Assembly (NCBI GenBank): GCA_963805085.1
Contig: CAWDTA010000004.1
Span: 288,001 to 352,000 of the forward strand
Length of the DNA: 64,000 bases
Source: an uncultured Veillonellaceae bacterium
Lineage (GTDB): Bacteria; Bacillota; Negativicutes; JARBTT01
Direction: 5' to 3'
How positions within the stretch are numbered: the first letter of the stretch is position 1; every line of letters begins with the position of its first letter. Positions 29,358 to 47,286 of the stretch are shown in pieces. The notes beneath the pieces were generated by a model. That model was not told the origin of the DNA and made no database searches. It was given only the letters and a program-made list of their open reading frames with translations. The position numbers and the translations under genes are program-made.

Positions 29358-30092
29358 ATGGAAGCACAAAGACAATACATAACTTCTAACAAAAAACAAA
29401 ACAAATCCACTTACAATGATTTTTTTCAAGGTGTACAGGATTGCGTACCAACTATTTTCGGTTATTTAAGTATCGGTTTTACTTGTGGCGTGGTAAGTAA
29501 GTCTTGCGGTTTAACCTTTTGGGAAACGATTGGCATGAGCACCTTTATCTATGCAGGTTCTTCGCAATTTATTGCCGCCAGTATGATTTTATCTGCGATC
29601 TCAGCACCGAGCATTATTTTCACCATTTTTTTAGTGAATTTACGACATTTATTTATGAGTGCGGCCTTGGCACCTTATTTTCAAAGAAATTCATTCTGGC
29701 GGAATTTCTTTATAGGAACTCTATTGACGGATGAAACCTTTGTAGTTGCATCTTCAGAAGGCACGAAAAATAATCAGCTAAATTATGCTTGGATGATGGG
29801 ATTAAATATTACCGCCTATCTTAATTGGATTTTAGCAACGGGATTTGGTGTTTTATTTGGAAACCTAATACCAAATTACGAAGTCTTTGGTTTAGACTTT
29901 GCTCTCACAGCGATGTTTATTGGATTATTAGCTTCCTCAATAAAAACTAATATTGTGTTAAGGAAAAGTTTAATGATCATTTTTTCTGCCATTCTCATTT
30001 TGTTGATAAGTACACCTTTCGTATCCTCTAATACAGGTGTACTTTTGGCAGCAATAGGCGGAGCCTTCATCGGGACGGTGATAAAAAAATGA
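29358..30092 (+). CDS. azlC: AzlC-family branched-chain amino-acid exporter
   Basis: YAGSSQF, LVNLRH, LTDETF, GLDFALTAMFI. Confidence 0.9.
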   Translation: MEAQRQYITSNKKQNKSTYNDFFQGVQDCVPTIFGYLSIGFTCGVVSKSCGLTFWETIGMSTFIYAGSSQFIAASMILSAISAPSIIFTIFLVNLRHLFMSAALAPYFQRNSFWRNFFIGTLLTDETFVVASSEGTKNNQLNYAWMMGLNITAYLNWILATGFGVLFGNLIPNYEVFGLDFALTAMFIGLLASSIKTNIVLRKSLMIIFSAILILLISTPFVSSNTGVLLAAIGGAFIGTVIKK

Positions 30093-30412
30093 ATATCTAT
30101 GTATGGACGATTATTCTAGGTGGTTGTCTCGTGACAATAATACCAAGGGTGTTACCTATTACTTTATTATCTAAAGTGACACTAAACGAAAAGCTCGCTG
30201 ATTTTTTAACATATTTACCTATATCCATATTATCTGCTTTAATCGCAGTAGAATTATTGATCGTTGATAATCACATCGCATTTTTTGAAAATGCAATAAA
30301 ACTATTAGCTACACTGCCAACATTGTTTATCGCTATTAAAAAAAATAATTTACTATTGACTGTCTTAACTGGAATCATAACGCTGGCTGTATTAAGATTT
30401 ATATCTTGTTAA
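30089..30412 (+). CDS. azlD: AzlD-family small membrane partner
   Basis: VTIIPRVLP...YLPISILSAL; coupled to azlC by an ATGA overlap. Confidence 0.88.
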   Translation: MNIYVWTIILGGCLVTIIPRVLPITLLSKVTLNEKLADFLTYLPISILSALIAVELLIVDNHIAFFENAIKLLATLPTLFIAIKKNNLLLTVLTGIITLAVLRFISC

Positions 30413-31286
30413 CATCTACAATCGGTTGATAAATATCTAACTCACAATAATTATCTTTACATAAGTGATTATTGATATATTCAAATCTAAAAGTATCCGC
30501 AAATTTATAGCCTGAATTAAAAATCCATTTGGAATACATATGAACAAGCAGCCGACCTATTTGTCTCCCATTGATATCATCCGGACGAAAAAATCCTACA
30601 AAATGAAAAACAACATAATTATGTGCTGGTATGACTATTCCTTCCATATTGCTTGGTATCTGTTTGAGATCATGAACTTGCAATGAAGGCATATAATAAA
30701 TGCAGCCATTATCAGTATCACTCCAGTCTGTATAACCAAAATATACTTGTGAATCAACTGGATTTTTAATTTGCTGACTTTGCTGATAAAAAAATTCTCT
30801 GCCATAAGCATTCGCAATTCGATCACCCGATTTGCTAAGAATTTTATGTTTTACACCTGTTAAAAAGAACTTTTGTTTGAACATAAAGGAAGGTTTATAG
30901 ATCACAGAATTATTAACAGACATAATATCATCTACATTTAATTTTTCCTGTATGACAAGTGACATTGGCTCAGATCTTATCTTCAGTGGCGTAAATCCAA
31001 ACTTTTTGCGAAAAGCTCTAATATAAGATTGTTCATAATCAAATCCATAATCCATTGCAATATCAATAATTCTTCTACCTGTATCTTTTAGTTCTGAAAT
31101 ACTTGATGAAAGCTTGCGTGATTGAACATATTCCATTAAAGATTCACCAGTCAATGATTTAAACATTCTATGCAAGTGATATTTTGACATACCACACTGT
31201 AGGGCTATATCATCTAAACTAATTTTTTTATAGAGATTAGCTTCTATATATCGAAGACATACAGCAATCGTTTCTTTTAAATCCAT
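30399..31286 (-). CDS. AraC-family regulator with GyrI-like effector domain
   Basis: N-terminal AraC HTHs (SKYHLHRMF, YGFDYEQSYIRAF); C-terminal GyrI-like region ending ELDIYQPI. Confidence 0.88.
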   Translation of the reverse strand: MDLKETIAVCLRYIEANLYKKISLDDIALQCGMSKYHLHRMFKSLTGESLMEYVQSRKLSSSISELKDTGRRIIDIAMDYGFDYEQSYIRAFRKKFGFTPLKIRSEPMSLVIQEKLNVDDIMSVNNSVIYKPSFMFKQKFFLTGVKHKILSKSGDRIANAYGREFFYQQSQQIKNPVDSQVYFGYTDWSDTDNGCIYYMPSLQVHDLKQIPSNMEGIVIPAHNYVVFHFVGFFRPDDINGRQIGRLLVHMYSKWIFNSGYKFADTFRFEYINNHLCKDNYCELDIYQPIVDVNKI

Positions 31287-31355
31287 TATGATATAGCCCT
31301 CCTTCAAATACAATTATCGTGAATTAATAAAATTACCCAACAAACTATCTGAACT

Positions 31356-32605
31356 TTACTTAATGTATCTTTCATATGCTTTGAAAATCAACGTAGCATT
31401 ATGCCCACCAAAACCAAAAGAATTACTCAATGCATGTGTAACTTTGCTTTGTCGTCCCTGATTAGGTACATAATCCAAATCACACACTGGATCCAAATTT
31501 TTATAATGAATCGTCGGTGGTAGAAATCCCTCTTTCACTACTAAGGAAGAAATAATTGATTCAATAGCTCCAGCAGCGCCCAACAAATGACCGGTCATGG
31601 ATTTCGTTGAACTTACGGCAAGTTTATATGCCTGCTCACCAAAAAGAGTTTTTATCGCTGTCGTCTCGGTCTCATCATTTAACTTAGTCGAAGTTCCATG
31701 TGCATTGATATATTGAATATCATATTTCGTTAAATTTGCATCTTCTAGAGCTAGTTTCATACAGGCAGCGCCACCTTCTCCGTTTGGATCAATTGCTGTA
31801 ATATGGTATGCATCATTTGTACAACCATACCCAACAATTTCAGCAATAATATTTGCGCCGCGATTTAAAGCATGGCTAAGTTCTTCTACAATCACTATGC
31901 CAGCTCCTTCACCCATAACAAATCCATCTCGTTCTAAATCAAAAGGTCTACAAGCTGTATTTACATCTAAATTCGTTGTCATTGCTTTATTTGCACAAAA
32001 ACCAGCCATTGCCAATCTGGTGATCGGAGCTTCGGTTCCACCTGCAATCATAACATCTGCAGCATCTCTTTGAATGATTTTAAAAGCATCACCAATTGCA
32101 TTGGTAGAAGAAGCACATGCAGAAACTATGCATTCGACGAATCCTTTTATCCCAAATTTGATAGCAATCGTTCCGGCTGCCATATTCGGTAACATCATAG
32201 GAATAAGAAATGGGCTCACACGATTTGTTCCTTTTTGCAAAAGTGTATTATGCTGAGTTTCTAATGTTTCAAGCCCCCAATACCAGAACCAATCATGATA
32301 CCAGTTCTACCACTTTGTTAACGTTATCTAGAATCTATTTCGGAATTCTCAACTGCCATTTGGGATGCAGCCATCGCATATTGTGAAAACCTATCCAATC
32401 TTTTTATTTCTTTTTTTTCAATAAAATCATTAGGATTAAAATTTTTTATTTCAGCTGCAACTTTAGTCGGTAAATCACTTACATCTACTCTTTCAACAAG
32501 ACTAATTCCTGATTTACCAGCTTTAATTGACTGCCAAAAGGTATCTATATCTAACCCTAAAGATGTAACTGCCCCCATACCAGTAATAACAACACGTCGT
32601 TTCAT
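31356..32605 (-). pseudogene. fabF: Beta-ketoacyl-ACP synthase II, frameshifted (or sequencing errors)
   Basis: N-part RRVVITGMG (32324-32605) and C-part with the Cys/His/His triad (SACASS, NAHGTST, TGHLLG). About three small indels at 32270-32335 interrupt D-L-D-N-V-N-K...[15 protein letters not shown]. Confidence 0.85.
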
Positions 32606-32782
32606 TTATTTTTCCTCCAATATTCGGCATCATTGCCGTTAACTTTCTAAATCATCTTTATTGACGAATCTTTTCTAAGGTTAACATATATTACAGAGCA
32701 AAAATGAACAACTATTGCTTTTCTCAGAAACAATGCATTCCAATTATAATAAATAAAATAAGCCTAAAAAACTACTGATATG

Positions 32783-32838
32783 TAATATGCTCCCCCTAAA
32801 GTGGCAGTTTTTATTATTTCAACTGTCTTCTTTAAGGA
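32783..32838. mobile_element. Left part of a 66-bp palindromic MITE (remainder at 44406-44415), split by the composite transposon
   Basis: Rejoined sequence TAATATGCTCCCCCTAAAG...CTTTAAGGAGAGCATATCA is self-complementary and is flanked by ATG direct repeats (32780-82, 44416-18). Confidence 0.65.
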
Positions 32839-34438
32839 CAATGTCATTAAGTTAAGCAAAATAGAATGTTTACATCGATAAAAGTAGATGTAAACATTCT
32901 ATTTTTATATTTGCTAGTCATATAAAAAAACACTTGACAAATAGTCGAAAATTTGCGGCTCCGCCCTTGAAATATAAAGTTTCTAGGGAGGAACACATAT
33001 GAAACCAACTGAAGTAAAAGAAATACTTTCACACATAATAAGTACTATATCAGATGATCCATCTGATTTTTTGCAAAATCCATCAAAGGACTTTACAAGG
33101 AATCGAAAACTATCATTTGAAACAATTATTAAAATGATGATTGGCATGGGCGGAAATAGCTTATGTAAAGAAATATATGATTGGTTCAATTATGCAGAAG
33201 ATACCGCATCTGTTTCTGCCTTTGTTCAACAAAGGCAGAAAATTTCATCTAAAGCTATGGAATATATTTTTAGAGAAATGGTTAAACAATGTGACGAGCG
33301 GATTTTATTTAAAGGATATCGTCTTCTTGCTGTAGATGGGTCTGATATAAGATTACCTAAAAATAAAAATGACGATAATTCTCATATCAAAAATGATGAT
33401 AATACTAAAGGATATAATCTTCTTCATCTTGATGCTATGTATGATTTGATGCGACATAATTATGTTGACGCTTCAATACAAAGTAAAAAAGGTATGAATG
33501 AACATAAGGCTCTGGTATCAATGATTGAAAAATCTGAAGCAACTGGAAGTGTTATTGTTATAGCTGATAGAGGATACGAATCTTTTAATAATATTGCTCA
33601 TTTTCAAGAAAAGAATTGGAATTATATTATACGTTCGAAAGAATCCTACGGTATTAAATATGAAAATCCTGATAGTGATGAATTCGATAAAGAAACCACC
33701 ATCACCCTTACTCGGAGAAAAACGAAAGATACAATAGCATTGATTAAAGAAAATCCTGATAGATATCGTTGGATTCAACCTCATACAACGTTTGATTACT
33801 TACTGTCTAGAGAAAATGAGATGTATGATTTGAAATTTAGAATTGTTCGATTTAAAATTTCAGATACCACTTATGAAACGTTATTCACAAATTTACCTGC
33901 GAATGAATTTCCTGCTGAAGTTTTGAAAGAACTATATAAAATGCGATGGGGTATCGAAACTTCATTCAAAGAATTAAAATATGATGTTGGATTAGCCAGC
34001 ATTCATAGTAAAAAGCAAGATTTTGTACTTCAAGAAATTTTTTCAAAGTTAATTATGTACAATTTTGCAGCTTTAATATCTTATCAAGTAGAACATCCAA
34101 AAGATAAAAGAATCAATTTCGCTAGAGCGATACATTTTTGTTATCAGTATTTTAAAGGCAAAATTTCTGAAAGAAGTCTTTTGAAAATTGTGCAAAAATT
34201 TATGTCTCCAATACGTCCTGGCAGAGTATTTGAAAGATATCAAAATATTAAAAAGGCTGTCGGGTTTGCATATAGAATTTCTTAACAACAACTCTTCATA
34301 TCTGCATGTTGTACAGATGGCTTATAACGTCATCTGCTTTTGGTATGTTTAAATCATAAAAATGGTGAACACTTATCATAGCGTTCACCATTTTTTGATA
34401 CATTAACCTGCTCTTAATTACTTAACTTAATGACATTG
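32839..34438 (+). mobile_element. IS4-family insertion sequence A (1600 bp)
   Basis: Terminal IRs CAATGTCATTAAGTTAAG / CTTAACTTAATGACATTG around a transposase gene. Confidence 0.92.
32999..34285 (+). CDS. IS4-family DDE transposase
   Basis: FTRNRKLSF, LLAVDGS, IADRGY, Y-K-M-R-W-G-I-E-T-S-F-K-E-L-K (YREK signature). Confidence 0.95.
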   Translation: MKPTEVKEILSHIISTISDDPSDFLQNPSKDFTRNRKLSFETIIKMMIGMGGNSLCKEIYDWFNYAEDTASVSAFVQQRQKISSKAMEYIFREMVKQCDERILFKGYRLLAVDGSDIRLPKNKNDDNSHIKNDDNTKGYNLLHLDAMYDLMRHNYVDASIQSKKGMNEHKALVSMIEKSEATGSVIVIADRGYESFNNIAHFQEKNWNYIIRSKESYGIKYENPDSDEFDKETTITLTRRKTKDTIALIKENPDRYRWIQPHTTFDYLLSRENEMYDLKFRIVRFKISDTTYETLFTNLPANEFPAEVLKELYKMRWGIETSFKELKYDVGLASIHSKKQDFVLQEIFSKLIMYNFAALISYQVEHPKDKRINFARAIHFCYQYFKGKISERSLLKIVQKFMSPIRPGRVFERYQNIKKAVGFAYRIS

Positions 34439-34645
34439 ACTTCCTGGTGCACACCAAAAGCCATCATAATTACCAATATTTCTAATTTGCAACTGCTCTT
34501 CTAGAGATTCCGTAGATAACCATTGTATTTCTACATTAACACCTAAATTATCTGCACAATGCTGTAACGCATCATTTGTCGCCTTGTGTGATGGCCGTTT
34601 CAAATCGAGATCGCCAATTACTCCTATTCTTATTAAACTACTCAT
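34439..34645 (-). pseudogene. CTP-synthase C-terminal-like glutamine amidotransferase, truncated by IS A
   Basis: IRIGVIGD...PSHKATNDAL...WLST...YDGFWCAPGS runs directly into the IS right end; the rest of the gene is absent from the window. Confidence 0.8.
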
Positions 34646-34688
34646 TTCAATCTTCCCCCAGTTTTATTCTCAAATTTCAAGGACGGGT

Positions 34689-34865
34689 AGGGACGTCAGA
34701 CTGTACAAAAACGCTGTACCCAATAAATCAAAAACTAAAAAGTGGCGGATAAATATTAGTTTTAAGTTCATATTGGGGCTATTTATCCCAAAATATAGGC
34801 CATTTATGTAGTAAAGTGGGAGAATTAAAAATAAAAAAATAGTTTTCGCACACCCCGACGCCCCT
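34689..34865. repeat. Possible MITE with degenerate 24-bp terminal inverted repeats
   Basis: AGGGACGTCAGACTGTACAAAAAC versus the reverse complement AGGGGCGTCGGGGTGTGCGAAAAC (18/24 identical); no TSD seen. Confidence 0.4.
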
Positions 34866-34894
34866 TCTTAACCAAAAACCTACACTAATCTAGA

Positions 34895-35064
34895 AGACAA
34901 GGTGACGGTTCTTCCTGTCTTGTTTTTTTATACCGTACTTACCTCGTAGCACCTTTTCCGAAGACAGTACCTCCACCACTTCGCCCTCCTCAACCTGCCA
35001 TCGCTTTTTGATATTAAATTTACATATTCTCATAAAAGCTCAAAATTCCTGCCAAATTCATACA
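34895..35064. repeat. 170-bp direct repeat, copy 1
   Basis: Matches 41541-41710 with three substitutions seen. Confidence 0.93.
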
Positions 35065-35548
35065 GAATTCTACAGGAGTTTCCTTTTTAGTATTTATACG
35101 ATAACCCCCATATATTTCATGGTTTCGCTACCTCGTAAATTCACTCATACTATAAAATCCACGCAATTTCTATAATTTTAGTCCCCAGATTGTTCCCCAA
35201 AGACTAGTATAGTTCCACTTTTTTCTTCCAGTACATGCCATTAAAAAACACAATTTTTAGCTTCTGATCCCATACGTTATATGCCTTCAGGCCTCTTTCA
35301 CTTTTCTCCCATGTCATGCTACACTGTATAATCGAACGTCAAGGTAGGCATTAATCAATAATTTACTGAATGTCTATTTTAAACGTCAATCAAAATCACC
35401 CCGAACCCCTAGAAACACTTGTTTGGGCACTATACCTTCTGCTACATTTTCACTGTACAATTAATTAATATGATTATTATTTAATTGTACAGGTTGAATT
35501 AGACTATGATTTTACTTATTTGATGATATTTCACTCACTACATGACAA

Positions 35549-36190
35549 TTAAATTTCAATAATTTGCTTTAGCGGTTCCATTTTCTTGAACCATTTGACC
35601 AACATACCGACAAACAGCGCAGCGGCTATTGTTCCGGTTCCTATGTCGGTCAATGTATGGTATAAGGTAATTGAGCCAATAACTGCAATCACAACCATTG
35701 TACAGTCCATAATAATTTTGATGCAGCTGTATTCTAAATCGCTGACTTTGGTTATAGCAACTAACATGGCATCCGGTGCAAGCATTAATAAATCAGCTTC
35801 CAAAAGTAAGTAGATTCCGAAAGCAAGACAAACAATACCTAATACACACAAGGCTACTTGCAGCCATAAGATATTGTCCGGGATACCGCTCAATAAGGAA
35901 AGTGTAAAATCTGTGAGTTTGCCATAGATAAAACCGACAACCAGCTGCAGCAACTGTAACAACTGAAAATCTTTACGTAAAATGATGATCTGTACAACCA
36001 CACAGGCAGACAACATAATCCACATAACAGTTCCTATCGAAACGCCAAGTGAATCACTGAAAACTGCTGGACAGACTCCAAGTGGCGATGTACCTAACTT
36101 TGCCTTTAAGGAAAGACTTACTCCTAAAGCAGCAAAAAATAAACCTACAAGCATAACAAAATTTTTCAATATCATTGTTTTCTTAAGCAC
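35549..36190 (-). CDS. YczE/YyaS/YitT (DUF6198-like) membrane protein
   Basis: AKLGTSP, GTGTIAAALFVG, hydrophobic duplicated architecture. Confidence 0.8.
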   Translation of the reverse strand: MLKKTMILKNFVMLVGLFFAALGVSLSLKAKLGTSPLGVCPAVFSDSLGVSIGTVMWIMLSACVVVQIIILRKDFQLLQLLQLVVGFIYGKLTDFTLSLLSGIPDNILWLQVALCVLGIVCLAFGIYLLLEADLLMLAPDAMLVAITKVSDLEYSCIKIIMDCTMVVIAVIGSITLYHTLTDIGTGTIAAALFVGMLVKWFKKMEPLKQIIEI

Positions 36191-36259
36191 ACACTACATC
36201 CTTTCACATACTATTTTTTCTTAGTTTCTCACTTTCTGCGCATTGACATTATTATACTA

Positions 36260-36308
36260 CCAGTCTTTGGAATAAATTTCAATTATTTAAATTTATTCCA
36301 AAGACTGG
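36260..36308. repeat. Perfect 20-bp-arm inverted repeat between divergent genes (operator or cruciform)
   Basis: CCAGTCTTTGGAATAAATTT-9 nt-AAATTTATTCCAAAGACTGG. Confidence 0.8.
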
Positions 36309-36321
36309 CGAAAACGATAGC

Positions 36322-37249
36322 TGTATATGATAATGAACGTTTGATTATTAAAATTTGTAAACTTTTTTTACGAGGAACACAAAACGTAGAAAGAAATCTC
36401 CGATATATTGAAAATCTCGAAATCACAGATTTCCCATATGATAAATTATGCAAAAAATAAAGGAATTGTCACTTTTAAATTTACAATCCTTATAAAAAAA
36501 GAATTCACGCTGGAAAAAATGTTGGCGGATAAATATCATTTAAAAGAAGTTTCCGTATATGATCTGGACTATTCCGCGGAGGAAGACGGACAAAATAGAT
36601 TTGGCGCTTATTGTGCCGAGCAACTCGAAAAATATATTTCTGACAACATGGACATTGGCATCATGAGTGGGAAATCATCTCGTCCATTGCCATGCATATT
36701 ACGAAACAGCCAAAAGAAGGACTGCATTTTATACCTCTAGTCGGCAGCTTCAAAAGCAATGGAGCCGATTATCATGCAAATATGATTGCGCGGCAGTTTG
36801 CTGAAAACGCCACCGGTTCGTATAGCATTCTGAATGTGACAGCTACTATTGGAATCTGAAGAAACATACCAATAGAGCCATCCATTCAACAAATTCTTTC
36901 TTTGGGTAACGCTTGCGATGTTTCCATCATCGGAATTGGTGAAATCAGTCTGGACTCGCAAGAATATACCAGTGAAGCCTATGCATCAGCTGATTAAAAA
37001 AAATTAAAACAGTTGGAAGTGGCATGTATTATGTGCACTTCTTATCTTGCGAAAGACGGAACGATTATGCCCACACCTCTCGATCAACGTACGATTGGCA
37101 TCCGAACAAATGAACTTCATCATGGAACGGTTATTGCCTGTTCGGGCAGTACAGCTAAAATATTAGAAATCAATGCAGCTTTACAAAGTGGTTATATTGA
37201 TGTGTTTATGACATCTCAAGAGATTGCAGAAGAACTTGTATCCCTTTAA
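36322..37249 (+). pseudogene. SorC/DeoR-family sugar-binding regulator, degraded
   Basis: RLIIKICKLFYEEHKT*KEISDILKISKSQIS...KGIV HTH with a nonsense codon and frameshifts; C-terminal fragment AALQSGYIDVFMTSQEIAEEL. Confidence 0.8.
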
Positions 37250-37520
37250 AGCCCTTACATCGCTCTTTTTATAACTGCTTCTGTCACGAAACGACTATTT
37301 GCAATAAATAATCTACTCAAAAGTGTTACTTTAGTGTACATGGCACCAATGGCACGTACTATAACCGACGGAACCAGTTAAAAAGATTGTATACCAGCAT
37401 ACAAATATGTAAGTAATTTACATTAACAATGCATAGAATGACTACTCATCGCAGCAAAACCGAATTCATGTACCTTTACTCTTTTATATAGGAGCTGCAA
37501 TAATCCGAAAATTATGCTGT

Positions 37521-39716
37521 TCACTTTTGCGGAATAATAGGAAGCTGCAGATAGGATGGATGCATTGCCCCAGTAAAAATTGTATTGAGAGCTTCTTTTT
37601 GATATGTCGCATCTAGAGAATCAAAGCTGGGCTGCAGATCCAGCCGGATACGCCATCCTTTTTTGATGACGGCCGTAGTAGGCCAAATTTCCACCTCGCA
37701 TTCCACAATTTCTCCGGATGTAAGCGGCTGATAGTCTTCTTTCAAATGAGTATAGTAAGGACGATAAATTGTGGTTTTTTCAATATCCTGCTTTCTATGG
37801 GAAACTTTAAGTGCCCCTTGAGCCATTGGATACACATTACCTCCAGCAAAAGCCCTACTTGTACTCGATTCAATCGCATACGGAACTTCTTTATTATTTT
37901 CGTCCATTACCCGAATGACTGCCTGAATCGCCATGTCGTAGGAAGTAGACGCCACCCATAATCCTAACTTTGCATACCCGGCAATAAGGATATCTTCCGA
38001 CATGAAATCTGTCAGAAAACTAACCCCCTTTGTCTCGCCAGCCGCATAAGTTGCACTTTCCTCACTAGTCGGAATGGATTTTCCCATATGCAAACCAGCT
38101 GTAGCTACATTCAGATAATACTTCTCATATTGAGTTCTTTGGAGCGGCCATTCCGCTTCATTCTGCCAATAATAGCTTCCCCAGCCAGTACGCACCATCA
38201 TCCGGACTGTGGGTCGATCCATAATGCCGTTGTCTACTCCTTTGAGCCAATAGTCAAAGAATGCAATATGCTCTCGCACAAACTCAGGAGCATACATCCA
38301 AAAATGGATACCTGTTTCAGACAAAATAGTGAGCTTTTTATTTTGTGAAGCACTATGAATAAAGGCTTCGCTGCTTCCCCGAGTGTGCACAGGCATTTCC
38401 AGATTCATAACATCCCAAAAAGGAACAATGATCTTGTCAGGGTCAGGACTGATGCAAATACTGCCGTTCGGACCATATACAGCAGGATCGTAAAATTGAT
38501 TAGCTTTAGCAATGTTTAGCCAGTCAATCCCCTGCCACTCGTCGCAGCAAATTTTGGCAATAAACCCAAATTCATTGTACAGCCCCCCACCGCTATAAAC
38601 ATAATCACGATACGAATCTATATCCCCGGCTATTGGCATCATGGCCTTCAAACTCGGCGGCTGAAGCGAAGCTACATTGAGTGCATTCATCGCGTAATAG
38701 GAAGCACCATATAGTCCCACATTGCCATTTGACCAAGATGTCTGCGCCGCCCACTCAATGGCATCATAGTAATCCTGCGCCTCTTGCAGGCTAAACTGCT
38801 CGAACATCCCGGGCGTTTTACCCGTTCCACGGCCATCTATCCGAATGACCACATAACCGTTGGGAACCCAATCTGCCGTATTGGCCAATTCAAAATGTTC
38901 GCTTACATGGGGCAGTGCAGGATTTTGTGGGCTACCGGAGGGTGGTAACTGCGAAGGAGGAATTTTTCCAGCAATTTGACAATGAAATTGAATAAAGGGA
39001 GTTTCTACTTTTATTCCTTCAAAATAAGCATCTTCCATTTCTTCATGTTTCAGTAAATCTTTTTGAGAGCCGATGCATCCAAACCAAAAAGCTTTTCCAT
39101 ACCCGCCAAAGCTCATAATAACGGGATATTTCCCCTTTTTCGCGGGACGGTATACGTCAGCCAGAACATACGCCCCATCCCGTGTCGGAACTTTGACATC
39201 AGTCATCTTTCGGATGCCTAAAAGAGCTCGCCGCAGATGATTTCTCGCCTCCGCACCTGAGCGAAGTCTGGTTCCAATTTCGGCAAATAGCGCTTCGGCA
39301 CTGAGACCAAAAGTTTCCTCACTTTGGTCGAAACATACGTCATAACGATACTTCCCGATACAGTTTCTAATGACATCAGTGATTATAATACTTCTCTCAA
39401 TATTAGTAGCTGAATTCAAACTCTGAACAAACCTCGCCAAATTGGTTACTTTACGGTTGGAGATTTTTTTGATATCTCCGCCTACCTCGATCACGAGATG
39501 AGCGGGAGTAAGCAAGGCAGTGCCAAGCGCGGACCCCAGCACTAGTCCACGAATCGAAAAGGTAACCGTTTCACCACAGCGATAGTGGAATGCTCCATGC
39601 TCGTCGGTCATACCTGAAAAAGTCTGTGTTTGATACTCCAGTCCTTGCACAGGAGTGGAGTCAAAGATACCCGTGCGGATTTCTGTAGCTTTTTCCATAA
39701 TCATCATATCTCCCAT
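37521..39716 (-). CDS. CocE/NonD-family serine hydrolase with extra N-terminal domain
   Basis: VKVPTRDG..LADVYRP, GYVVIRIDGRGTG, nucleophile GASYYA, C-terminal PepX-like domain ending PSYLQLPII. Confidence 0.88.
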   Translation of the reverse strand: MGDMMIMEKATEIRTGIFDSTPVQGLEYQTQTFSGMTDEHGAFHYRCGETVTFSIRGLVLGSALGTALLTPAHLVIEVGGDIKKISNRKVTNLARFVQSLNSATNIERSIIITDVIRNCIGKYRYDVCFDQSEETFGLSAEALFAEIGTRLRSGAEARNHLRRALLGIRKMTDVKVPTRDGAYVLADVYRPAKKGKYPVIMSFGGYGKAFWFGCIGSQKDLLKHEEMEDAYFEGIKVETPFIQFHCQIAGKIPPSQLPPSGSPQNPALPHVSEHFELANTADWVPNGYVVIRIDGRGTGKTPGMFEQFSLQEAQDYYDAIEWAAQTSWSNGNVGLYGASYYAMNALNVASLQPPSLKAMMPIAGDIDSYRDYVYSGGGLYNEFGFIAKICCDEWQGIDWLNIAKANQFYDPAVYGPNGSICISPDPDKIIVPFWDVMNLEMPVHTRGSSEAFIHSASQNKKLTILSETGIHFWMYAPEFVREHIAFFDYWLKGVDNGIMDRPTVRMMVRTGWGSYYWQNEAEWPLQRTQYEKYYLNVATAGLHMGKSIPTSEESATYAAGETKGVSFLTDFMSEDILIAGYAKLGLWVASTSYDMAIQAVIRVMDENNKEVPYAIESSTSRAFAGGNVYPMAQGALKVSHRKQDIEKTTIYRPYYTHLKEDYQPLTSGEIVECEVEIWPTTAVIKKGWRIRLDLQPSFDSLDATYQKEALNTIFTGAMHPSYLQLPIIPQK

Positions 39717-39764
39717 AAATTTTCGAAACTAATTTGTTTTTTCCACATTTAATTCCAATACTTC

Positions 39765-40742
39765 TTAGATTCCAATATTAGGTGGATTTCCAAGAAGTTT
39801 CTGACCTTCCTTGATAATTGATGAAATAATGTCTTTTACCGGCCTTATTTCATCAACTAAAGCAACAATCTGACCAGCCATAACAGCGCCTTCGTTTTCC
39901 ACATCGCCTTCAATCATTGCTTTTTTCAATGAACTTTCCGCCACTGTTTTTAATTTTTCCGCGGCTTCAATTTTAGGGTATTTTGCTTCAATATCTAAAA
40001 TACACTCAGAAAGTTTATTCGCCAACTGTCGACACGCTTCTCCGGTTGTGTTACCGGTAATTACCGTACTCATATCTTCGGCGTCAATCACCGCTTGCTT
40101 AACATTCGGATGAATATTAGCCTCTTTGGCCGCCATAAATATGGTTCCCATCTCAATACCTGATGCACCAAGCATAACCGCTGCTGCCAGTCCTCGACCG
40201 TCAGCAATGCCACCTGAAGCCACGAGCGGAGCCTTTATTTTATCGGCCGCCTGAGGCATAAGAACCATTGTTGACTCAAACGTGACATGACCGCCCCCTT
40301 CCCATCCTTTGACGATTACAACATCAGCACCCGCCGCGTCCGCAACCAATGCATCTGCCATATGACTGGCCTTGATCACGACTTTAATGCCATATTGATG
40401 CCAAATATCCACATATTTCTTGGTAAACTTTATTTCCATTCCTGACAACGTATCCGCATAAATCACCGGCGTCTGTGTTTCAATCGCGATTTGGGTAATT
40501 TGGTCAATCGTCCCCAGACCTGGAACCATGAAGATATTGATTGCGAAAGGTTTACTTGTTAACTTCTTAGTTTCGTAAATTTGATTCTTTACGAATTCGA
40601 GCGGTGCAAAGCCGACCCCTAACACTCCAAGCCCACCGGCCTCACTAACAGCGGCGACTAAGGACGCTGTGGCAATCCATGCCATTGGCCCCTGAATAAC
40701 TGGATATGAAATGCCTAGTGCTTTACATACTGGATTGTTCAT
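39765..40742 (-). CDS. Nitronate monooxygenase / FabK-like FMN oxidoreductase
   Basis: YPVIQGPM, VSEAGGLG, GWEGGGH, ASGGIADGRG, MAGQ. Confidence 0.88.
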   Translation of the reverse strand: MNNPVCKALGISYPVIQGPMAWIATASLVAAVSEAGGLGVLGVGFAPLEFVKNQIYETKKLTSKPFAINIFMVPGLGTIDQITQIAIETQTPVIYADTLSGMEIKFTKKYVDIWHQYGIKVVIKASHMADALVADAAGADVVIVKGWEGGGHVTFESTMVLMPQAADKIKAPLVASGGIADGRGLAAAVMLGASGIEMGTIFMAAKEANIHPNVKQAVIDAEDMSTVITGNTTGEACRQLANKLSECILDIEAKYPKIEAAEKLKTVAESSLKKAMIEGDVENEGAVMAGQIVALVDEIRPVKDIISSIIKEGQKLLGNPPNIGI

Positions 40743-40944
40743 TAAATACTCCTCCTTAAAAATAAACTTTTGAATTTTTTTGAATACTGTTATACTTAAA
40801 ATATTGAGTTTAATCCTCGATCCTCTTAAAATATTATATTTCAGCAGCTTATTTCGTACAATTAGTGATTTTTATGCCACCTAGTTACCTTTTTGACACT
40901 ATTAAATTGATTTGACTGGCGTACCGCAGAGGAGGGAATTATAT

Positions 40945-41316
40945 ATGAAAATCCTATATGATCCTGGTGATCGCCCATACGACTACTTTCATCGAGTGAT
41001 GGGCGGGAAATGGAAAATGTTTATTATCCGCGGGATTCACCAAAATGGATTTATTCGTTTTAATGAAGCGAAGCGAATATTAGGCGTATCCGGTAAATTT
41101 TTGCAACAACAGCTCCGCGACCTTGAACGAGACGGCATAATTGATCGCATTGTTTATCCTGTTATGCCCCCTCATGTTGAATATGTATTTACACCTGCCG
41201 GCAAAGAATTAGTACCAGTCCTTGACAGTATTTACGAATGGAGTACGAAAAGAATGCAGGAATTGCAGATACCTATTGCTCTCCTATCTCCCGTATACCA
41301 CAAAAAAACTGACTAA
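40945..41316 (+). CDS. HxlR-family winged-helix regulator
   Basis: MGGKWK, LQQQLRDLERDGII.R.VYPVMPPHVEY; RBS GGAGG before ATG 40945. Confidence 0.9.
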   Translation: MKILYDPGDRPYDYFHRVMGGKWKMFIIRGIHQNGFIRFNEAKRILGVSGKFLQQQLRDLERDGIIDRIVYPVMPPHVEYVFTPAGKELVPVLDSIYEWSTKRMQELQIPIALLSPVYHKKTD

Positions 41317-41540
41317 GCCTGATCTTCCGGCCGTCCTTCAAACAAATTCTATGCTAAATATAAATTGGTCATAATCAGCAGCATCGATCTAAATCGTAAG
41401 CGTCAAAAAGGCCGTTACCTTGACAACACCTGTTATAACTGGCACCCAGTCCTGGCCGTCATAGGGCTTGGTCAGATTTTTATCATTTTGCAGCCATTTG
41501 TGCAACGTACCTAGGCCAATGCCGTTTTCTCAACGCCACG

Positions 41541-41710
41541 AGACAAGGTGACGGTTCTTTCTGTCTTGTTTTTTTATACCGCACTTACCTCGTAGCACCT
41601 TTTCCGAAGACAGTACCTCCACCACTTCGCCCTCCTCAACCTGCCATCGCTTTTTGATATTAAATTTACATATTCTCATAAAAGCTCAAAACTCCTGCCA
41701 AATTCATACA
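41541..41710. repeat. 170-bp direct repeat, copy 2
   Basis: Matches 34895-35064. Confidence 0.93.
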
Positions 41711-41781
41711 TTTTCCCAAAAAGTCATGTGTTTATATGGAACGTTTCAAAATACTGATTTACGACATTTTGGAACTATAAA

Positions 41782-41821
41782 ATTATAAGTATTAAAATGT
41801 ATACATTTTAGTACTTATAAT
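41782..41821. repeat. 40-bp loopless palindrome
   Basis: ATTATAAGTATTAAAATGTA|TACATTTTAGTACTTATAAT with one mismatch. Confidence 0.75.
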
Positions 41822-41890
41822 ATAAATATTTAGCCCTCTGATTTAGAGGGCTTGAGTAATTTCACTATTTCAAATCTACTTTACTTTTTA

Positions 41891-42178
41891 TTAGGACACC
41901 TCTTCATTTGAAAAAGAAAAGACTTTTTTTGTTTCATTTTTTCCAGTGAATTCATTTTGTGCTATATCAGTTGCTTTTCTAATCTCAGCAATCTGTTTAT
42001 CAGTGTATTCATAACTTGATTTATTCGACAATTTACCAATCAAATTAATCTGGTTTAAAACCGCTGAAACTCTGCGTACTGAAATTCTTACAAAATCTCC
42101 TGCCTTATCTTTTACTTTTGGCGTTGCTGTCTCGTCGCCAAGGATCTCTCCATTATTTAAATTTGTTTCATCACTCAT
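41891..42178 (-). CDS. Small hypothetical protein of a family common in phages and mobile elements
   Basis: FVRISVRRVSAVLNQINLIGKLSNKSSYEYTDKQI pattern; RBS AGGAG; own terminator at 41832-41852. Confidence 0.65.
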   Translation of the reverse strand: MSDETNLNNGEILGDETATPKVKDKAGDFVRISVRRVSAVLNQINLIGKLSNKSSYEYTDKQIAEIRKATDIAQNEFTGKNETKKVFSFSNEEVS

Positions 42179-42348
42179 AATTAAAAACTCCTTATCTTAT
42201 TATACATTTTAAAATTCTTTTATTTACTACCTAGAATGGTATTTGTGTCTACTAAGTTACCTTTAATACCTCAATAGCACTCTTATTACTTGGCTTCATA
42301 CAAATTGCAGGTATGAAAAACATATAATACGTATGTTTATATATTTAT

Positions 42349-42687
42349 TCATCTAGTTTGAATACCTCGAATTCTACTACCATCGTTTTTATTTATTTCA
42401 TAAGAGATCCCATTCCAATTTCCAACAACAATTTCATCAGACAAATCATCAAAATTTGTATATGGACTATCCTCATAGATTAAATCAGGTTCTTGAATTC
42501 TCCAGCGAATATCCTTATCTTTGATGTTTACCGCATAGACGTTCTGGTTATTTATTTCCCCTTTAGGAACAGTAATTAAAACCAAAACCAATTCTTCATA
42601 TAATTTAATACTTTTAATAGAATGTGAGAAATTGATAGAGTCCCCAGCTATAAATAACTGGTTATTAACATAATGTATATCCATCAT
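42349..42687 (-). CDS. Small hypothetical protein, possible polymorphic-toxin immunity protein
   Basis: QNVYAVN..DKDIRWRIQ...SPYT...VGNWNGISYEIN..DG beta-rich pattern; family recalled, not verified. Confidence 0.55.
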   Translation of the reverse strand: MMDIHYVNNQLFIAGDSINFSHSIKSIKLYEELVLVLITVPKGEINNQNVYAVNIKDKDIRWRIQEPDLIYEDSPYTNFDDLSDEIVVGNWNGISYEINKNDGSRIRGIQTR

Positions 42688-42782
42688 TTGTCACCTAACT
42701 TCCTTGTATTTTGCAAGCGGCAGGATCATCGAGGCGTTCTAATAATTCATATCCGGTTAGCAAAAAAGGCTAACATTTCTGC

Positions 42783-44395
42783 CAATGTCATTAAGTTAAA
42801 ACATAGAAGATCAATCCCCAAAAGAATCGAGTACAAAAAAGCGTACCCGGTTCTTTTTTTGTAGAAAAAGGTTGACAAACAGACGAAAATATGTGATGAA
42901 GCTCCTTGAATGAATACATTTTGGGAGGTTTCGCTTATGAATTTCTCTGAAAGCGTGAAACAAGTATTGTTGGGAAAAATACAGGAGATGGCAACTTGTC
43001 CTGGATTGTTTGTACGCAATCCAGACAGTGATTTTACAAGAAAGCGAAAGCTTGATTTTGAAACAACAATTCGGTGTCTGATTGCCATGGAAAGCGGTAG
43101 CCTGAAGAAAGAACTGCTGGAGCTTTTCCATTACAATCTTGACACCGCGACGGCATCGGCTTTTAATCAGCAACGTGAAAAGATACTCCCGGAAGCATTG
43201 GAATTTCTCTTCCGAGAATTCAGCAAAGCCTTTGCACAATATCAAACATACCGTGGGTATCGATTACTTGCCTGTGATGGCACTGCCTTGAACATAGCTC
43301 AAAATCCAAGTGATCAGGAAACTTATTTTCAGTCAATTCCCGGAGATAAAGGGTTTAATCAACTCCATCTAAATTCCCCCCTATACGATTTATGTAGCAG
43401 ACGGTATGTGGATGCTGTAATCCAACCTGGAAGAAAAAAGAATGAGTGCCGCGCCATGACAGACATGATCGACCAGTGCGTTTCCGGACACAAGACAATA
43501 TTTATTGCAGATCGCGGCTATGAAGCTTACAACACCTTTGCTCACGCAGAACAACGAGATATGTATTATCTTATACGTGTAAGGGAATCTGGACATAGTA
43601 TGGTAACTAGCTTTGGTTTGCCGCTAACGGACTCATTCGATACACATGTGCATCTTACACTGACCCATAAACAGTCAGCTCTGGCAAGAGCATGTCCCGG
43701 TTATAAATTTCTTCCATCAAACAGTACATTCGATTATTTGGATCAAAGTGATTTCTATCCTATCACTTTACGCATTGTACGTTTTCTAGTCACGGAAGAT
43801 ACCTATGAATGCGTTATTACCAATCTGCCCAAAGATACGTTTCCACCGGATGAACTCAAGAAACTCTACGCAATGCGTTGGGGAATCGAAACGTCCTTCC
43901 GGGAATTGAAATATGCAATTGGTCTCAGTTGTTTCCATGCCAAAAAGGTGGAGTATATCAAGCAGGAAATCTTTGCCCGTCTGCTTCTTTATAATTTCTG
44001 TGAGATCATCACGACCCATGTGGTGATCCAGCAAAAAGATACGAAGCACATATACCAAGTGAACTATACTCTGGCAATCCACTTATGTCGGCATTTTCTG
44101 CGATTTCCTACGGATATATCTCCACCCGATGTTGAGATGCTGATACAGAAAAATCTTCTTCCTGTCAGACCCGGACGCAGTGACCCTCGCAAAGTCAAGC
44201 CCAAGGCAGCAGTGAGTTTTCTATATCGTGTAGCATAATCTCCTATTTACTATATCCCTTTTATTGGCAGATAGCAATCTGCCTTTTTGTGGCGCTCAAA
44301 AATAGACAAAAAAGACAGGGAGACCATTATTTCTCAATCTCGCTGTCTTTTCCGTTGTTTCTTTGTCGTTTTGTTTTCTTAACTTAATGACATTG
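42783..44395 (+). mobile_element. IS4-family insertion sequence B (1613 bp)
   Basis: IRs CAATGTCATTAAGTTAA / CTTAACTTAATGACATTG. Confidence 0.92.
42937..44238 (+). CDS. IS4-family DDE transposase (distinct from IS A)
   Basis: DFTRKRKLDF, LLACDGT, IADRGY, YAMRWGIETSFRELK; RBS GGAGG before ATG 42937. Confidence 0.95.
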   Translation: MNFSESVKQVLLGKIQEMATCPGLFVRNPDSDFTRKRKLDFETTIRCLIAMESGSLKKELLELFHYNLDTATASAFNQQREKILPEALEFLFREFSKAFAQYQTYRGYRLLACDGTALNIAQNPSDQETYFQSIPGDKGFNQLHLNSPLYDLCSRRYVDAVIQPGRKKNECRAMTDMIDQCVSGHKTIFIADRGYEAYNTFAHAEQRDMYYLIRVRESGHSMVTSFGLPLTDSFDTHVHLTLTHKQSALARACPGYKFLPSNSTFDYLDQSDFYPITLRIVRFLVTEDTYECVITNLPKDTFPPDELKKLYAMRWGIETSFRELKYAIGLSCFHAKKVEYIKQEIFARLLLYNFCEIITTHVVIQQKDTKHIYQVNYTLAIHLCRHFLRFPTDISPPDVEMLIQKNLLPVRPGRSDPRKVKPKAAVSFLYRVA

Positions 44396-44461
44396 TCTTT
44401 AAGGAGAGCATATCAATGGTAGCTTTTCGGACTTATTCTAATCTTTTTCTTTCTTTATCTA

Positions 44462-46423
44462 CTAACCCTTGAACTTACTAACCGCTTCTTGTAAATTCTG
44501 TGCCATTTGTGCTAGACTTTGACTCGAAGATGCGATTTCTTCCATAGAAGCAGCCTGTTCTTCTGTTGCTGCCGAAACATTTTGCACCTCACCACTTGTA
44601 TTCTTCGTTAGTTCATCAATCTGCTGCACTGAGACAACAATTTGCTGACTATCATTCGCCAGATGTTGAATAACAGCTGATGTATCCCCAACTTGACCAG
44701 CCAAGTTTGTTACCATCTCAATAATTTTTTTAAAGCTTTCACCAGCTTCATTTACAACACCTGTACCAACCTTCACTTCTTTTGTACCTTCTTGCATAGC
44801 CACTACAGCCTTATCTGTTTCACCTTGAATTTCCGCAATCAGGTTGGCAATTTGTTTTGCCGCTTCCTGCGATTGCTCCGCTAATTTGCGAACTTCCTCG
44901 GCAACAACAGCAAAGCCTCGTCCTTGTTCACCTGCCCTGGCCGCCTCGATCGCAGCGTTAAGAGCTAGAAGATTCGTTTGCCCTGCAATTCCAGAAATAG
45001 TATCGACGATCTGCCCTATTTCTTTTGAGCGTTCACCAAGCTGCGCAACTACCGTGGCTGAAGTACTAACTGTATGCTCAATATCTAGCATCTGCTGAAC
45101 AGCAGATTGTACTGCCCTACCGCCTTCCTTAGCTGTATCAACAGCTTTCATAGACTGCTCCGACACTGCATTCGCATTATCCGCTGCTTGATAAATATTT
45201 TGTGACATCTGTTCTATTACTTTGGTTACGTCATTCACTACTCGATATTGCTTATCAGTTCCTTCTGCTACTTCAGTTATCGATGAAGCTACTTGATTCG
45301 CAGCGATTGCAGATTGTTCAGCGCTCGACGTTAGTTGTTCTGACGATGCTGCTAATTGATGGGAATTTTCTTGTACTTGTCCGACTAGCTTTTTTAAATT
45401 AACTACCATTGTAGCAAAGGCAGCCGCTAACATTCCAATTTCATCTTTTGAAGTTATCTCTATTTTTTGATTAAGATCCCCCTGTGCAATTTTACTTGCT
45501 AACTGCTGCATTTTTAAGATTGGTTCTGAAAAACCTTTCGCAATATAAAAAGCTAGAATTCCTACTAAAATTAAAACGACTAATGTTACCAAACTAACCA
45601 TGAGTAATAAAGCGTGCGTTTTTTCTGTTATCACACTATAAGGTGTCTCTAAACAAATCAACCACCCTGTTTTATCATCATAAACATATGTAATGATTTT
45701 CTTTCCACTATTTTTATCCTCAACAATGGCAAAGCCACTCTTTTTACTGGATAAACCTTCTTTTACAAAGCTTACTTCATTCATATCAGCACGATCTTTT
45801 ACAAGATTTTGCTCTGGATGCGCTAGTATTTTCCCTTCACTATCAATAACATAGGCCAGTCTACCGTCATTGGACAACTTTTCTACAAACTCACTAATTT
45901 TTGTAAGTGTAAGCGAGCCCTGCATTACCCCAATAACATTGGTTCCATTTAAATCACGTACAGGTGTCATCAGATTTACCACGGCACGATTTGAGTTCTT
46001 ACTAAACACAACGCCTGATATTGCCTCATCCTGCCCCTTAAGTGCAGCTTGATAAAAGGGCCTTTCCCAAATATTTGCCAATGAGATATTGTCTCCGCGT
46101 ACAACCTGATTGCCTTTTGCATCATCAAGTGAAAAAGAACTTTCCGGATAAACCTTCTGCATTTGCAGTAGATAGGTCTTTACCTTAGGTAAATCATATT
46201 CTTTTACCGTCGGATTAGCAGCAATCGTTTTAAGTGCCATGAAAGATTTATCAATATAACCATCCATCTGCATATCAACTTCCATAGCAAGTTCCTTACA
46301 TTGATTGATTGCTTCTTTTTCTAGTTCCGTACTTAAATACCTTACTGAAATCACCGACAATATGATGAGTGGAATAAAACTTATGGATATCATAATCAAT
46401 AATAATTTCTTTTTTACGCTCAT
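44462..46423 (-). CDS. Methyl-accepting chemotaxis protein (dCache, HAMP, MCP signalling domain)
   Basis: Two TMs; Cache-type [13 protein letters not shown]; [37 protein letters not shown]. Confidence 0.95.
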
Positions 46424-46610
46424 TTCGATAGCTCCCCCTATTAATTTCAATAGTAAATACTGCTATATATAACACACTAAACTTTCTATCAATCTTTAGT
46501 GCTTTCTATATAGTACAAGCAACAAATTTTACTGCTATAAATTTTCATCTTTCATATCAACAGTAATAAACTCTAAATTCACCATTTTTTCGTACCGTTG
46601 GATATATTTA

Positions 46611-46626
46611 TGCAATTTTTATGCCA
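46611..46626 (-). promoter_or_regulatory. Sigma-54 (-24/-12) promoter of the MCP gene
   Basis: Minus strand TGGCATAAAAATTGCA matches TGGCAY-N5-TTGCW. Confidence 0.75.
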
Positions 46627-46866
46627 ATTCATTCCACCTTGATAACACTGGGTTTGTGATTTTACACTAGAAATGATCGTTTCATAATGCAATATATTCA
46701 ATGCATTATGCATCATTTATTTTTGAGTTGCAAATATTCTTCATAATTATTATTTATTTTTTTTAATGCTTACATACAGTATTTAAAAGTGCTAAATTGA
46801 ATGATACTACCTTTATTTCCATAAAAATAGCCCTTGTCCATTTTGCTTTTGGATAAGGGCTATCTT

Positions 46867-47286
46867 CTATTTCAATGTAGGTAAACTTCCCGTTAAGTGA
46901 TTGATTTCTTTTTTGTTGCCATAAAGGCAAATTCCAAGGTAGTTAAGACTATTCGCGAAAGCACCTGCCATTTTCGTTGTATAATCTTCATACGAGTTAC
47001 AACGCTGCGCCAAATCACTAAAACCTACTAACATCATACTTTCTTCATATTCTGCATTAGCTGTTTGATAAATTTCTTTAATTTGATCTTTACTAGCGGC
47101 TAAAATAGGAAGAGGCGTATTGATAATACCAAGGTGCTGATGCTGGTCTTGATCGACTACATCCTCACCGACAATTTCCTGTATCTGTTTTCCAAGCGTA
47201 CAACCTAATATTGCCGCTGTATTGGCAATCAATCCTATCGGTAGATTTTGATCAATCACTGCTACACATTTTTTCGAAGAGTCCAT
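46867..47286 (-). CDS. DUF2000-family protein
   Basis: KCVAVIDQNLPIGLIANTAAILG...YLGICLYGNKKEINHLTGSLPTL. Confidence 0.85.
   Translation of the reverse strand: MDSSKKCVAVIDQNLPIGLIANTAAILGCTLGKQIQEIVGEDVVDQDQHQHLGIINTPLPILAASKDQIKEIYQTANAEYEESMMLVGFSDLAQRCNSYEDYTTKMAGAFANSLNYLGICLYGNKKEINHLTGSLPTLK

Follow-up and report, generated by a model that had tools for sequence, protein, structure and literature searches.

A probable hybrid composite transposon bounded by two unlike IS4-family insertion sequences in a Veillonellaceae genome

Introduction

How does a block of 11.6 kb, bounded by two insertion sequences (ISs) that are clearly different elements, come to share one short target duplication? 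The question is raised by a 64,000-nucleotide stretch of the genome of an uncultured Veillonellaceae bacterium (G000:C4:288001-352000, where G000 is the source genome and C4 the contig; hereafter the window), in which two IS4-family elements, here called ISA and ISB, enclose a cargo of passenger genes between a fabF-like gene and a gene for a methyl-accepting chemotaxis protein (MCP). A first-pass annotation had proposed that the whole 11.6 kb moved as one unit, using one end of each IS. This proposal gains from an empty site in a relative and from the contrasting target habits of the two element types, while the evidence overall is circumstantial and the arrangement has been seen once. We conclude that ISA-cargo-ISB is probably a hybrid composite transposon, hybrid because the flanking ISs are not copies of one element, and that movement as one unit is the best explanation of what we observe.

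Results

One target duplication around two unlike elements

The first-pass annotation had placed ISA and ISB in direct orientation, and its coordinates proved exact (Table 1). The 17-mer CAATGTCATTAAGTTAA occurs four times in the window at up to two mismatches, against 0.04 expected from shuffled sequence, and the four sites are the four IS ends. The 10-mer TCTTTAAGGA occurs exactly twice (0.24 expected), directly outside the left inverted repeat of ISA and the right inverted repeat of ISB, as had been described, and nowhere else in the window. The inner flanks, ACTTCCTGGT at ISA and ACATTTCTGC at ISB, do not match each other, and the inner end of ISA cuts a class-I glutamine amidotransferase (GATase)-like gene after 69 codons, again in agreement with the earlier reading. 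As in a composite transposon, two ISs bracket passenger genes in a block totalling 11,557 bp, of which 8344 bp is cargo, and a single target duplication surrounds the whole unit, with none around each IS.

Each IS carries one intact transposase open reading frame (ORF) on the plus strand, with no frameshift. The ISA and ISB transposases match PF01609 (1.6e-30 and 1.5e-21, respectively) and the NCBIfam IS4 model NF033592 (195.6 and 171.9 bits, with a cutoff of 115), and in a pairwise alignment both keep the catalytic D, D and E residues as well as the Y-(2)-R-(3)-E-(6)-K signature, which reads YKMRWGIETSFKELK in ISA and YAMRWGIETSFRELK in ISB. This signature is defined in the available part of the account by De Palmenaer, Siguier and Mahillon (2008, PMC2266710), which for subgroup IS4 lists the end consensus -AATR--------WTW----, element sizes between 1400 and 1650 bp and direct repeats 10-13 bp long. 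CAATGTCATTAAGTTAA fits the consensus at positions 2-5 and 14-16, and the 10-bp duplications and the sizes of 1600 and 1613 bp lie within the published ranges. By these sequence features, ISA and ISB belong to subgroup IS4 of the IS4 family.

Within the subgroup the two are far apart, as had been claimed for both their proteins and their base composition: across 434 aligned positions the transposases share 41% identity, G+C is 0.30 in ISA and 0.41 in ISB, and there is no DNA similarity beyond the ends. In a classical composite transposon both ISs are the same element, and in this respect the locus differs. A second full copy of ISA lies at C2:1510482-1512081 in the source genome (99.8% identical, with the 10-bp target-site duplication (TSD) ACTTGACGGG), whereas no second full copy of ISB was found there. 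Among complete copies checked, the TSD is 10 bp in 5/5 ISA-like and 4/5 ISB-like elements, the fifth of the latter matching at 9/10 positions. The outer ends are true to each IS type for 12 bases inside the shared repeat, and ISB-like copies in G048 and G034 have exactly the same subterminal 12 bases at the right end as ISB. The source genome also holds a 949-bp derivative of an ISB-like element (C3:281960-282908), 91% identical over its first 933 bp. An internal deletion in this derivative extends precisely to the 17-bp right repeat, and the derivative lies in a terminator-like palindrome with a perfect duplication of 10 bp.

The target is the end of an IS3-like element

Put together, the outer flanks of the block make up a single target, of which 10 bp are perfectly repeated in direct orientation. 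We call the IS3-like target element Y and its 72-bp remnant in the window X1. Once rebuilt, X1 aligns at 60/80 positions with the left end of an IS3-like element that G062 holds in multiple copies; in that genome at least 7 contig ends carry an identical stretch of at least 85 bases ending in ...GGGAGCATATCA, with the sequences diverging beyond it. Inward from this tip runs an ORF matching HTH_28 (1.5e-10) and HTH_Tnp_1 (1.6e-8), and on contig C2 of the source genome an 81-aa rve_3/rve_2 C-terminus stops 77 bp before the second ISA copy. The ends of Y read TGATATG... and ...CATATCA. From these alignments, we identify the target as the terminal repeat of Y, with the duplicated 10 bp corresponding to positions 11-20 from the tip. 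Y is at most a candidate member of the IS3 family itself: among the fragments examined, one of 102 aa scores only 22.8 bits with the NCBIfam IS3 model, and no matching repeat of 3-4 bp, as for an IS3-family TSD, is evident around X1.

ISA-type elements are found at such ends repeatedly. The flanks of the second full ISA copy resemble the outer flanks of the window beyond the duplication, and ISA-like copies in other genomes (92-98% identity, with one at 65%) show the same flank pattern, which on one side is a variable 10-mer followed by GAGCATATCA and on the other the complement of the 10-mer, then AGACAG, then A/T-rich sequence. In the source genome, four IS3-like ends are occupied by ISA or ISA fragments (Table 1), and ISA-type elements lie in IS3-like ends across genomes of different families (loci L147, L148 and L150-L159). 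One of these, L151 (G116:C14:5110-5509), is a 400-bp ISA derivative between two IS3-like tips with different 10-mers and no duplication, and looks like a recombinant of two ISA copies. ISA lies in either orientation relative to the Y flank, which excludes the conserved flank as a part of ISA. A promoter, a structured RNA or terminator, and a free-standing miniature inverted-repeat transposable element (MITE) were also considered for this flank, which proved to be an IS3-like end; no Rfam match was found in 30000-47000 at E up to 0.01.

The 22 bases after the right end of ISB recur at C5:20554-20575, where they adjoin a truncated copy of ISA at its right end. There, they are followed by unrelated DNA, the truncated hairpin of another repeat, and because the DNA beyond the junction differs, the C5 junction is an independent ISA insertion on a second IS3-like end rather than a relic of the window locus. 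The idea that the 22-base identity descends from an ancestral simple ISA insertion at the present site was set aside, the flank being an IS3-like tip used by ISA in several genomes. The surrounding region (L012, C5:17000-25000) is a patchwork of mobile-element fragments and includes a repeat of approximately 900 bp that has at least 15 copies genome-wide (75-94% identity) with a conserved hairpin at its end; the copy in L012 has no Pfam match.

An empty site in a relative

In G004, blocks matching the fabF side (window 30397-32773, an AraC-like gene and fabF) and the MCP side (window 44413-46423) at approximately 80% identity lie 5 bp apart on one strand (C7:3223391 and C7:3223385), whereas they are 11.6 kb apart in the window. 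The fabF/MCP intergenic region of G004 is a plain hairpin, and relative to it the window holds the 11.6-kb block plus approximately 72 bp (32776-32838 and 44406-44415) in the hairpin loop. The empty site in a related genome that is sought for a composite transposon is thus present in G004, which is 80% identical and has no X1. The first-pass annotation had predicted fabF and MCP to be adjacent with a single TCTTTAAGGA between them; the adjacency was found, but the single 10-mer was not, as the whole X1 remnant is missing in G004. A further genome, G010, possibly has the same neighbourhood at 67-69% identity, to which we give little weight as MCP paralogues are numerous, and no closer relatives of G004 are available, its family comprising G004 alone. 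The C4 region is approximately 80% identical to G004, a member of another family, and only approximately 67% identical to a genome of the same genus (G001 was compared); contig mis-binning, horizontal transfer or a placement problem are possible reasons for this resemblance.

The landing site points to the ISA transposase

We classified the flanks at all distinct ends of the loci returned; as the copies are related, the counts are descriptive and not independent. A Y-type half-site adjoins the majority of distinct ISA-like ends (17/20; the tip side in 12 cases and the inner side in 5). The exceptions are the inner end of ISA in the window, an end in G110 whose partner end is at a clear tip site, and one end in G062. 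Among ISB-like ends, only the outer end of ISB in the window adjoins a Y tip (1/17), and the IS3-like target is found at 0/16 of the others. Instead, 13/17 ISB-like ends (79-91% identity), including the inner flank of ISB, have the T-run flanks typical of bidirectional terminator hairpins. The Y-type motif is present at 3/110 other public ends with the same 17-mer, one of the three being ISA-like. By this classification of flanks, the outer end of ISB clearly lies in an ISA-type target and its inner end in an ISB-type target.

The junction of the right end of ISB with the right half of X1 calls for a transposition that joined this end to this target, and the partner end in that event must adjoin the other copy of the 10-mer, where the left end of ISA lies. 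Because the landing target is of the ISA type, the acting transposase was probably that of ISA. We infer a single event, with the following history. At a donor site, ISA and ISB, two different members of subgroup IS4, would have come to flank 8.3 kb, ISB in a terminator-like palindrome, its usual target, and ISA inside the GATase-like gene. One transposase, most likely that of ISA, would then have synapsed the left end of ISA with the right end of ISB through their identical 17-bp repeats, and the 11,557-bp block would have been cut out and pasted into positions 11-20 of the decayed IS3-like terminal repeat in the loop of the fabF/MCP terminator, duplicating 10 bp upon insertion. The cut-and-paste chemistry is assumed by analogy with the family.

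Weighing the alternatives

Several observations weigh against this history. The unit has been met once, with no second copy in the source genome, in 5 ISA-bearing genomes or in 30 relatives, and neither these genomes nor two metagenome scans showed the composite elsewhere with another duplication. G004 is 20% diverged and has no IS3-like remnant either, and thus does not show the locus as it stood immediately before the insertion. The flanks that we counted come from related copies, the inner flank of ISA (ACTTCCTGGT GCACA...) is atypical as an ISA target, and the arrival of ISA at the donor site is unexplained. Finally, the assembly consists of 5 contigs at 83% completeness and 6% contamination, ISA has its second, 99.8% identical copy, and no read support for the junctions was found, one run (word share of 0.05) giving 9 short contigs of cargo only that are uninformative on the assembly. 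These assembly figures, together with a fabF in two frames that may reflect an indel error and the greater closeness of C4 to G004, of another family, than to the listed same-genus genome, would fit a contig mis-joined through repeated IS sequence, in which case no cell would have ISA, cargo and ISB side by side. We consider such an artefact quite improbable: the other full ISA copy is flanked by matching 10-bp repeats and its flanks are accounted for, there is no second full ISB copy to mis-join through, and a chance mis-join is unlikely to place both halves of one 72-bp target and a perfect 10-bp repeat at the outer ends.

The locus might also have been built stepwise in place, with ISA (less likely ISB) inserting in the IS3-like remnant and the cargo and second IS joining by recombination at the 17-18-bp repeats; for example, a circular ISA-cargo-ISB would integrate via ISA homology, followed by a deletion between direct right-end repeats. 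Under this route ISA alone accounts for the choice of target, and the right end of ISA adjoining the same 22 bases on C5 indicates that ISA alone can occupy such sites, while both the 400-bp L151 and the 949-bp ISB-like element resemble products of end-to-end recombination. It would nevertheless require at least two rare events, one of them recombination within 17-18 bp, and a simple reciprocal exchange at the right ends predicts ACATTTCTGC beside the inner end of ISA, where it is absent. The C5 junction, moreover, is a separate IS3-like end with different DNA beyond it and offers no relic of the window locus. On balance, we regard stepwise assembly as unlikely. The first-pass annotation had itself raised the possibility that the 10-mer is a recurrent target hit independently by both ISs. 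Recurrence is real to the extent that the 10-mer and 12 further bases are found at C5:20554-20575 beside an independently inserted ISA end, but it leaves the paired outer junctions unexplained. Had each IS inserted independently into a copy of the same hot spot, each would be flanked left and right by a duplication of its own, whereas here the inner flanks differ from the outer flanks; both outer flanks run into native DNA (fabF and MCP, adjacent in G004); and ISB-type elements are absent from this kind of target at 16/16 other ends. Two independent insertions thus appear extremely improbable, and movement of ISA-cargo-ISB as one unit remains our preferred explanation.

Cargo and neighbouring genes

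The cargo consists of ordinary metabolic and regulatory genes with no evident selectable gene (Table 1). Apart from the initial 660 bp and a 170-bp repeat that it contains twice, it is single-copy in the source genome. The truncated GATase-like gene has a full paralogue of 255 aa at C2:1454959-1455726, and window 34439-35098 is 98.8% identical to C2:1455164-1454505. The 170-bp repeats (34895-35064 and 41541-41710) are in direct orientation in the cargo; the repeat also occurs approximately 20 times in one 100-kb region of the source genome (C2:1.42-1.52 Mb), and no Rfam family matches it. Contigs from a soil-metagenome run likewise break at the boundaries at 35098, 41534 and 41710. The 110-aa ORF at 36408-36740 covers only the first 67 of 257 positions of the Sugar-bind (SorC-type) profile and is probably a gene fragment inside the cargo. 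On the left of the block, the fabF-like gene is split between two frames into ORFs of 294 aa (31356-32240) and 93 aa (32324-32605), both on the minus strand, reflecting either a pseudogene or an assembly indel error.

In 5 genomes that carry ISA, the cargo DNA matched nothing longer than 231 bases at 77%, which is not a substantial match; the cargo was not found in 30 relatives, and metagenome scans with a 28-base left-flank stretch and a 22-base right-flank stretch returned 0 stretches each.

Table 1. Features of the ISA-cargo-ISB locus (window positions unless a contig is named)
Feature	Position	Strand	Remarks
fabF-like gene, left neighbour	31356..32605	minus	ORF reading and Pfam; two ORFs in different frames
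X1, inner part	32776..32838	no strand	within loop of fabF/MCP terminator; last 10 bp are the left target copy
Left target-duplication copy, TCTTTAAGGA, 10 bp	32829..32838	plus	sequence read and motif count
ISA, 1600 bp	32839..34438	plus	IS4 family, subgroup IS4 (by sequence)
ISA transposase ORF	32999-34285	plus	428 aa
GATase class-I-like gene, 5' fragment, 69 codons	34439..34645	minus	cut by inner end of ISA
Cargo, 8344 bp	34439..42782	no strand	ORFs and Pfam
DUF6198 membrane protein (cargo)	35549-36190	minus	Pfam
SorC-like fragment (cargo)	36408-36740	plus	Pfam
S15/PepX_C hydrolase (cargo)	37521-39716	minus	Pfam
NMO-family oxidoreductase (cargo)	39765-40742	minus	Pfam
HxlR regulator (cargo)	40912-41316	plus	Pfam
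Two small ORFs (cargo)	41891-42178 and 42349-42687	minus	no Pfam family
ISB, 1613 bp	42783..44395	plus	IS4 family, subgroup IS4 (by sequence)
ISB transposase ORF	42910-44238	plus	442 aa; start more likely 42937
Right target-duplication copy, 10 bp	44396..44405	plus	sequence read and motif count
X1 tip, GAGCATATCA plus AT	44406..44417	no strand	same tip after 10-bp repeat at other ISA-type ends in this and other genomes
MCP gene, right neighbour	44462..46450	minus	Pfam; adjoins fabF homologue in G004
CAATGTCATTAAGTTAA sites, 17 bp	32839-32855 and 34422-34438; 42783-42799 and 44379-44395	plus and minus; plus and minus	all four IS ends: inverted repeats of ISA; of ISB
ISA-occupied IS3-like ends in G000	window 32776-32838 with 44406-44417; C2:1510482-1512104; C2:81556-81740; C5:20554-21489

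The 17-bp end is common

The first-pass annotation had drawn attention to the terminal repeat shared by ISA and ISB. Such sharing is not special, the repeat being the conserved end of the entire IS4 subgroup: at least 129 stretches in the genome collection, from several phyla, contain the exact 17-mer CAATGTCATTAAGTTAA, as do 42/401 genomes sampled from the class. Carriers among the matches listed include Flavobacterium and other Bacteroidota, Lachnospiraceae, Lactobacillus, Streptococcus, Gammaproteobacteria and Chloroflexota. Judging from these occurrences, an end shared by two IS species of subgroup IS4 is the norm. Many of the sites are MITE-like pairs, 70-270 bp apart. In three complete genomes with ISA-like or ISB-like copies, we observe simple end pairs only (1.1-1.65 kb apart), and no partner for either inner flank was found beside another IS end in the source genome.

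Two loci in other genomes have the same 17-bp ends around larger pieces. L217 (G126:C17:577-6758) is a 6182-bp element with a 10-bp duplication. It encodes a single DDE transposase and has two passenger ORFs, of which the first carries YadA-like anchor and stalk domains and the second a CoiA_N domain. At L218 (G303:C14:33711-38536), MITE-like elements of 221 bp and 73 bp surround a 4.5-kb segment that encodes an ATPase_2/DUF234 protein and Hsp20; only the outer ends adjoin an 11-bp duplication, which lies in a terminator loop, neither MITE-like element having its own TSD, and the inner flanks are inverted repeats of each other (26/28). Together, L217 and L218 support the idea that such ends move larger pieces.

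Discussion

In Tn10 and Tn5, the outer ends work together, and one target duplication flanks the whole unit. ISA-cargo-ISB resembles these transposons, both named as IS4-family composite transposons in the available part of PMC2266710, in having two ISs around passenger genes, outer ends that would be used jointly and one target duplication for the whole unit. It differs from them in that the ISs are unlike (41% identical transposases) and in direct orientation, and in that the cargo is without an evident selectable gene. Another parallel is Tn1547, attributed to Quintiliani and Courvalin in 1996, which is reportedly a composite transposon with IS16 and IS256-like elements at its flanks and a resistance operon as cargo. 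Judged from the title only, the likeness lies in a composite bounded by two unlike ISs, while the IS family and the host are different and Tn1547 has the resistance operon. A composite with unlike ISs thus has a precedent, and the novelty of ISA-cargo-ISB in this regard is modest.

With respect to the target, IS231A is known to prefer a transposon end. ISRm22, of the IS4 family, targets repetitive extragenic palindromic (REP) elements according to the available part of PMC1525189, and is thus similar in landing at one position in a repeated palindromic sequence; the ISA target, by comparison, is positions 11-20 of an IS3-like terminal repeat, used in several genomes. The available part of PMC2266710 remarks on the "spectacular apparent insertion specificity" of some subgroup IS4 members, which ISA and ISB resemble in their single DDE transposase ORF with the YREK signature, their consensus ends, their 10-bp direct repeats and their sizes; a preference for IS3-like ends is not mentioned in that part. 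A limited, keyword-based literature search found no description of an IS4-subgroup element targeting IS3-like ends, and we do not claim that none has been published. At this locus, the contrasting target habits of ISA-type and ISB-type elements allow the acting transposase to be deduced from the landing site, an opportunity that natural loci rarely offer.

A bolder extension, which we put forward tentatively and hold to be somewhat doubtful, is that the 17-bp end is a universal handle spanning phyla, such that any transposase of the subgroup moves DNA between two such ends, and that the ISA clade are "IS hunters." If this were true, full ISs, MITE-like remnants or solo repeats would all be usable as ends, and the acting transposase would be readable afterwards from the target signature. 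IS hunters would insert 10 bp inside IS3-like ends, making decayed ISs landing pads for captured chromosomal genes.

The practical value of the locus lies in annotation, namely in spotting hetero-paired duplications and nested IS-in-IS targets. If ISA-cargo-ISB is indeed a hybrid composite transposon, gene capture by IS4-subgroup elements would not need two copies of one IS, as any two elements with the conserved end would suffice, and more chromosomal segments would be mobilisable in genomes that have several such ISs or MITE-like remnants.

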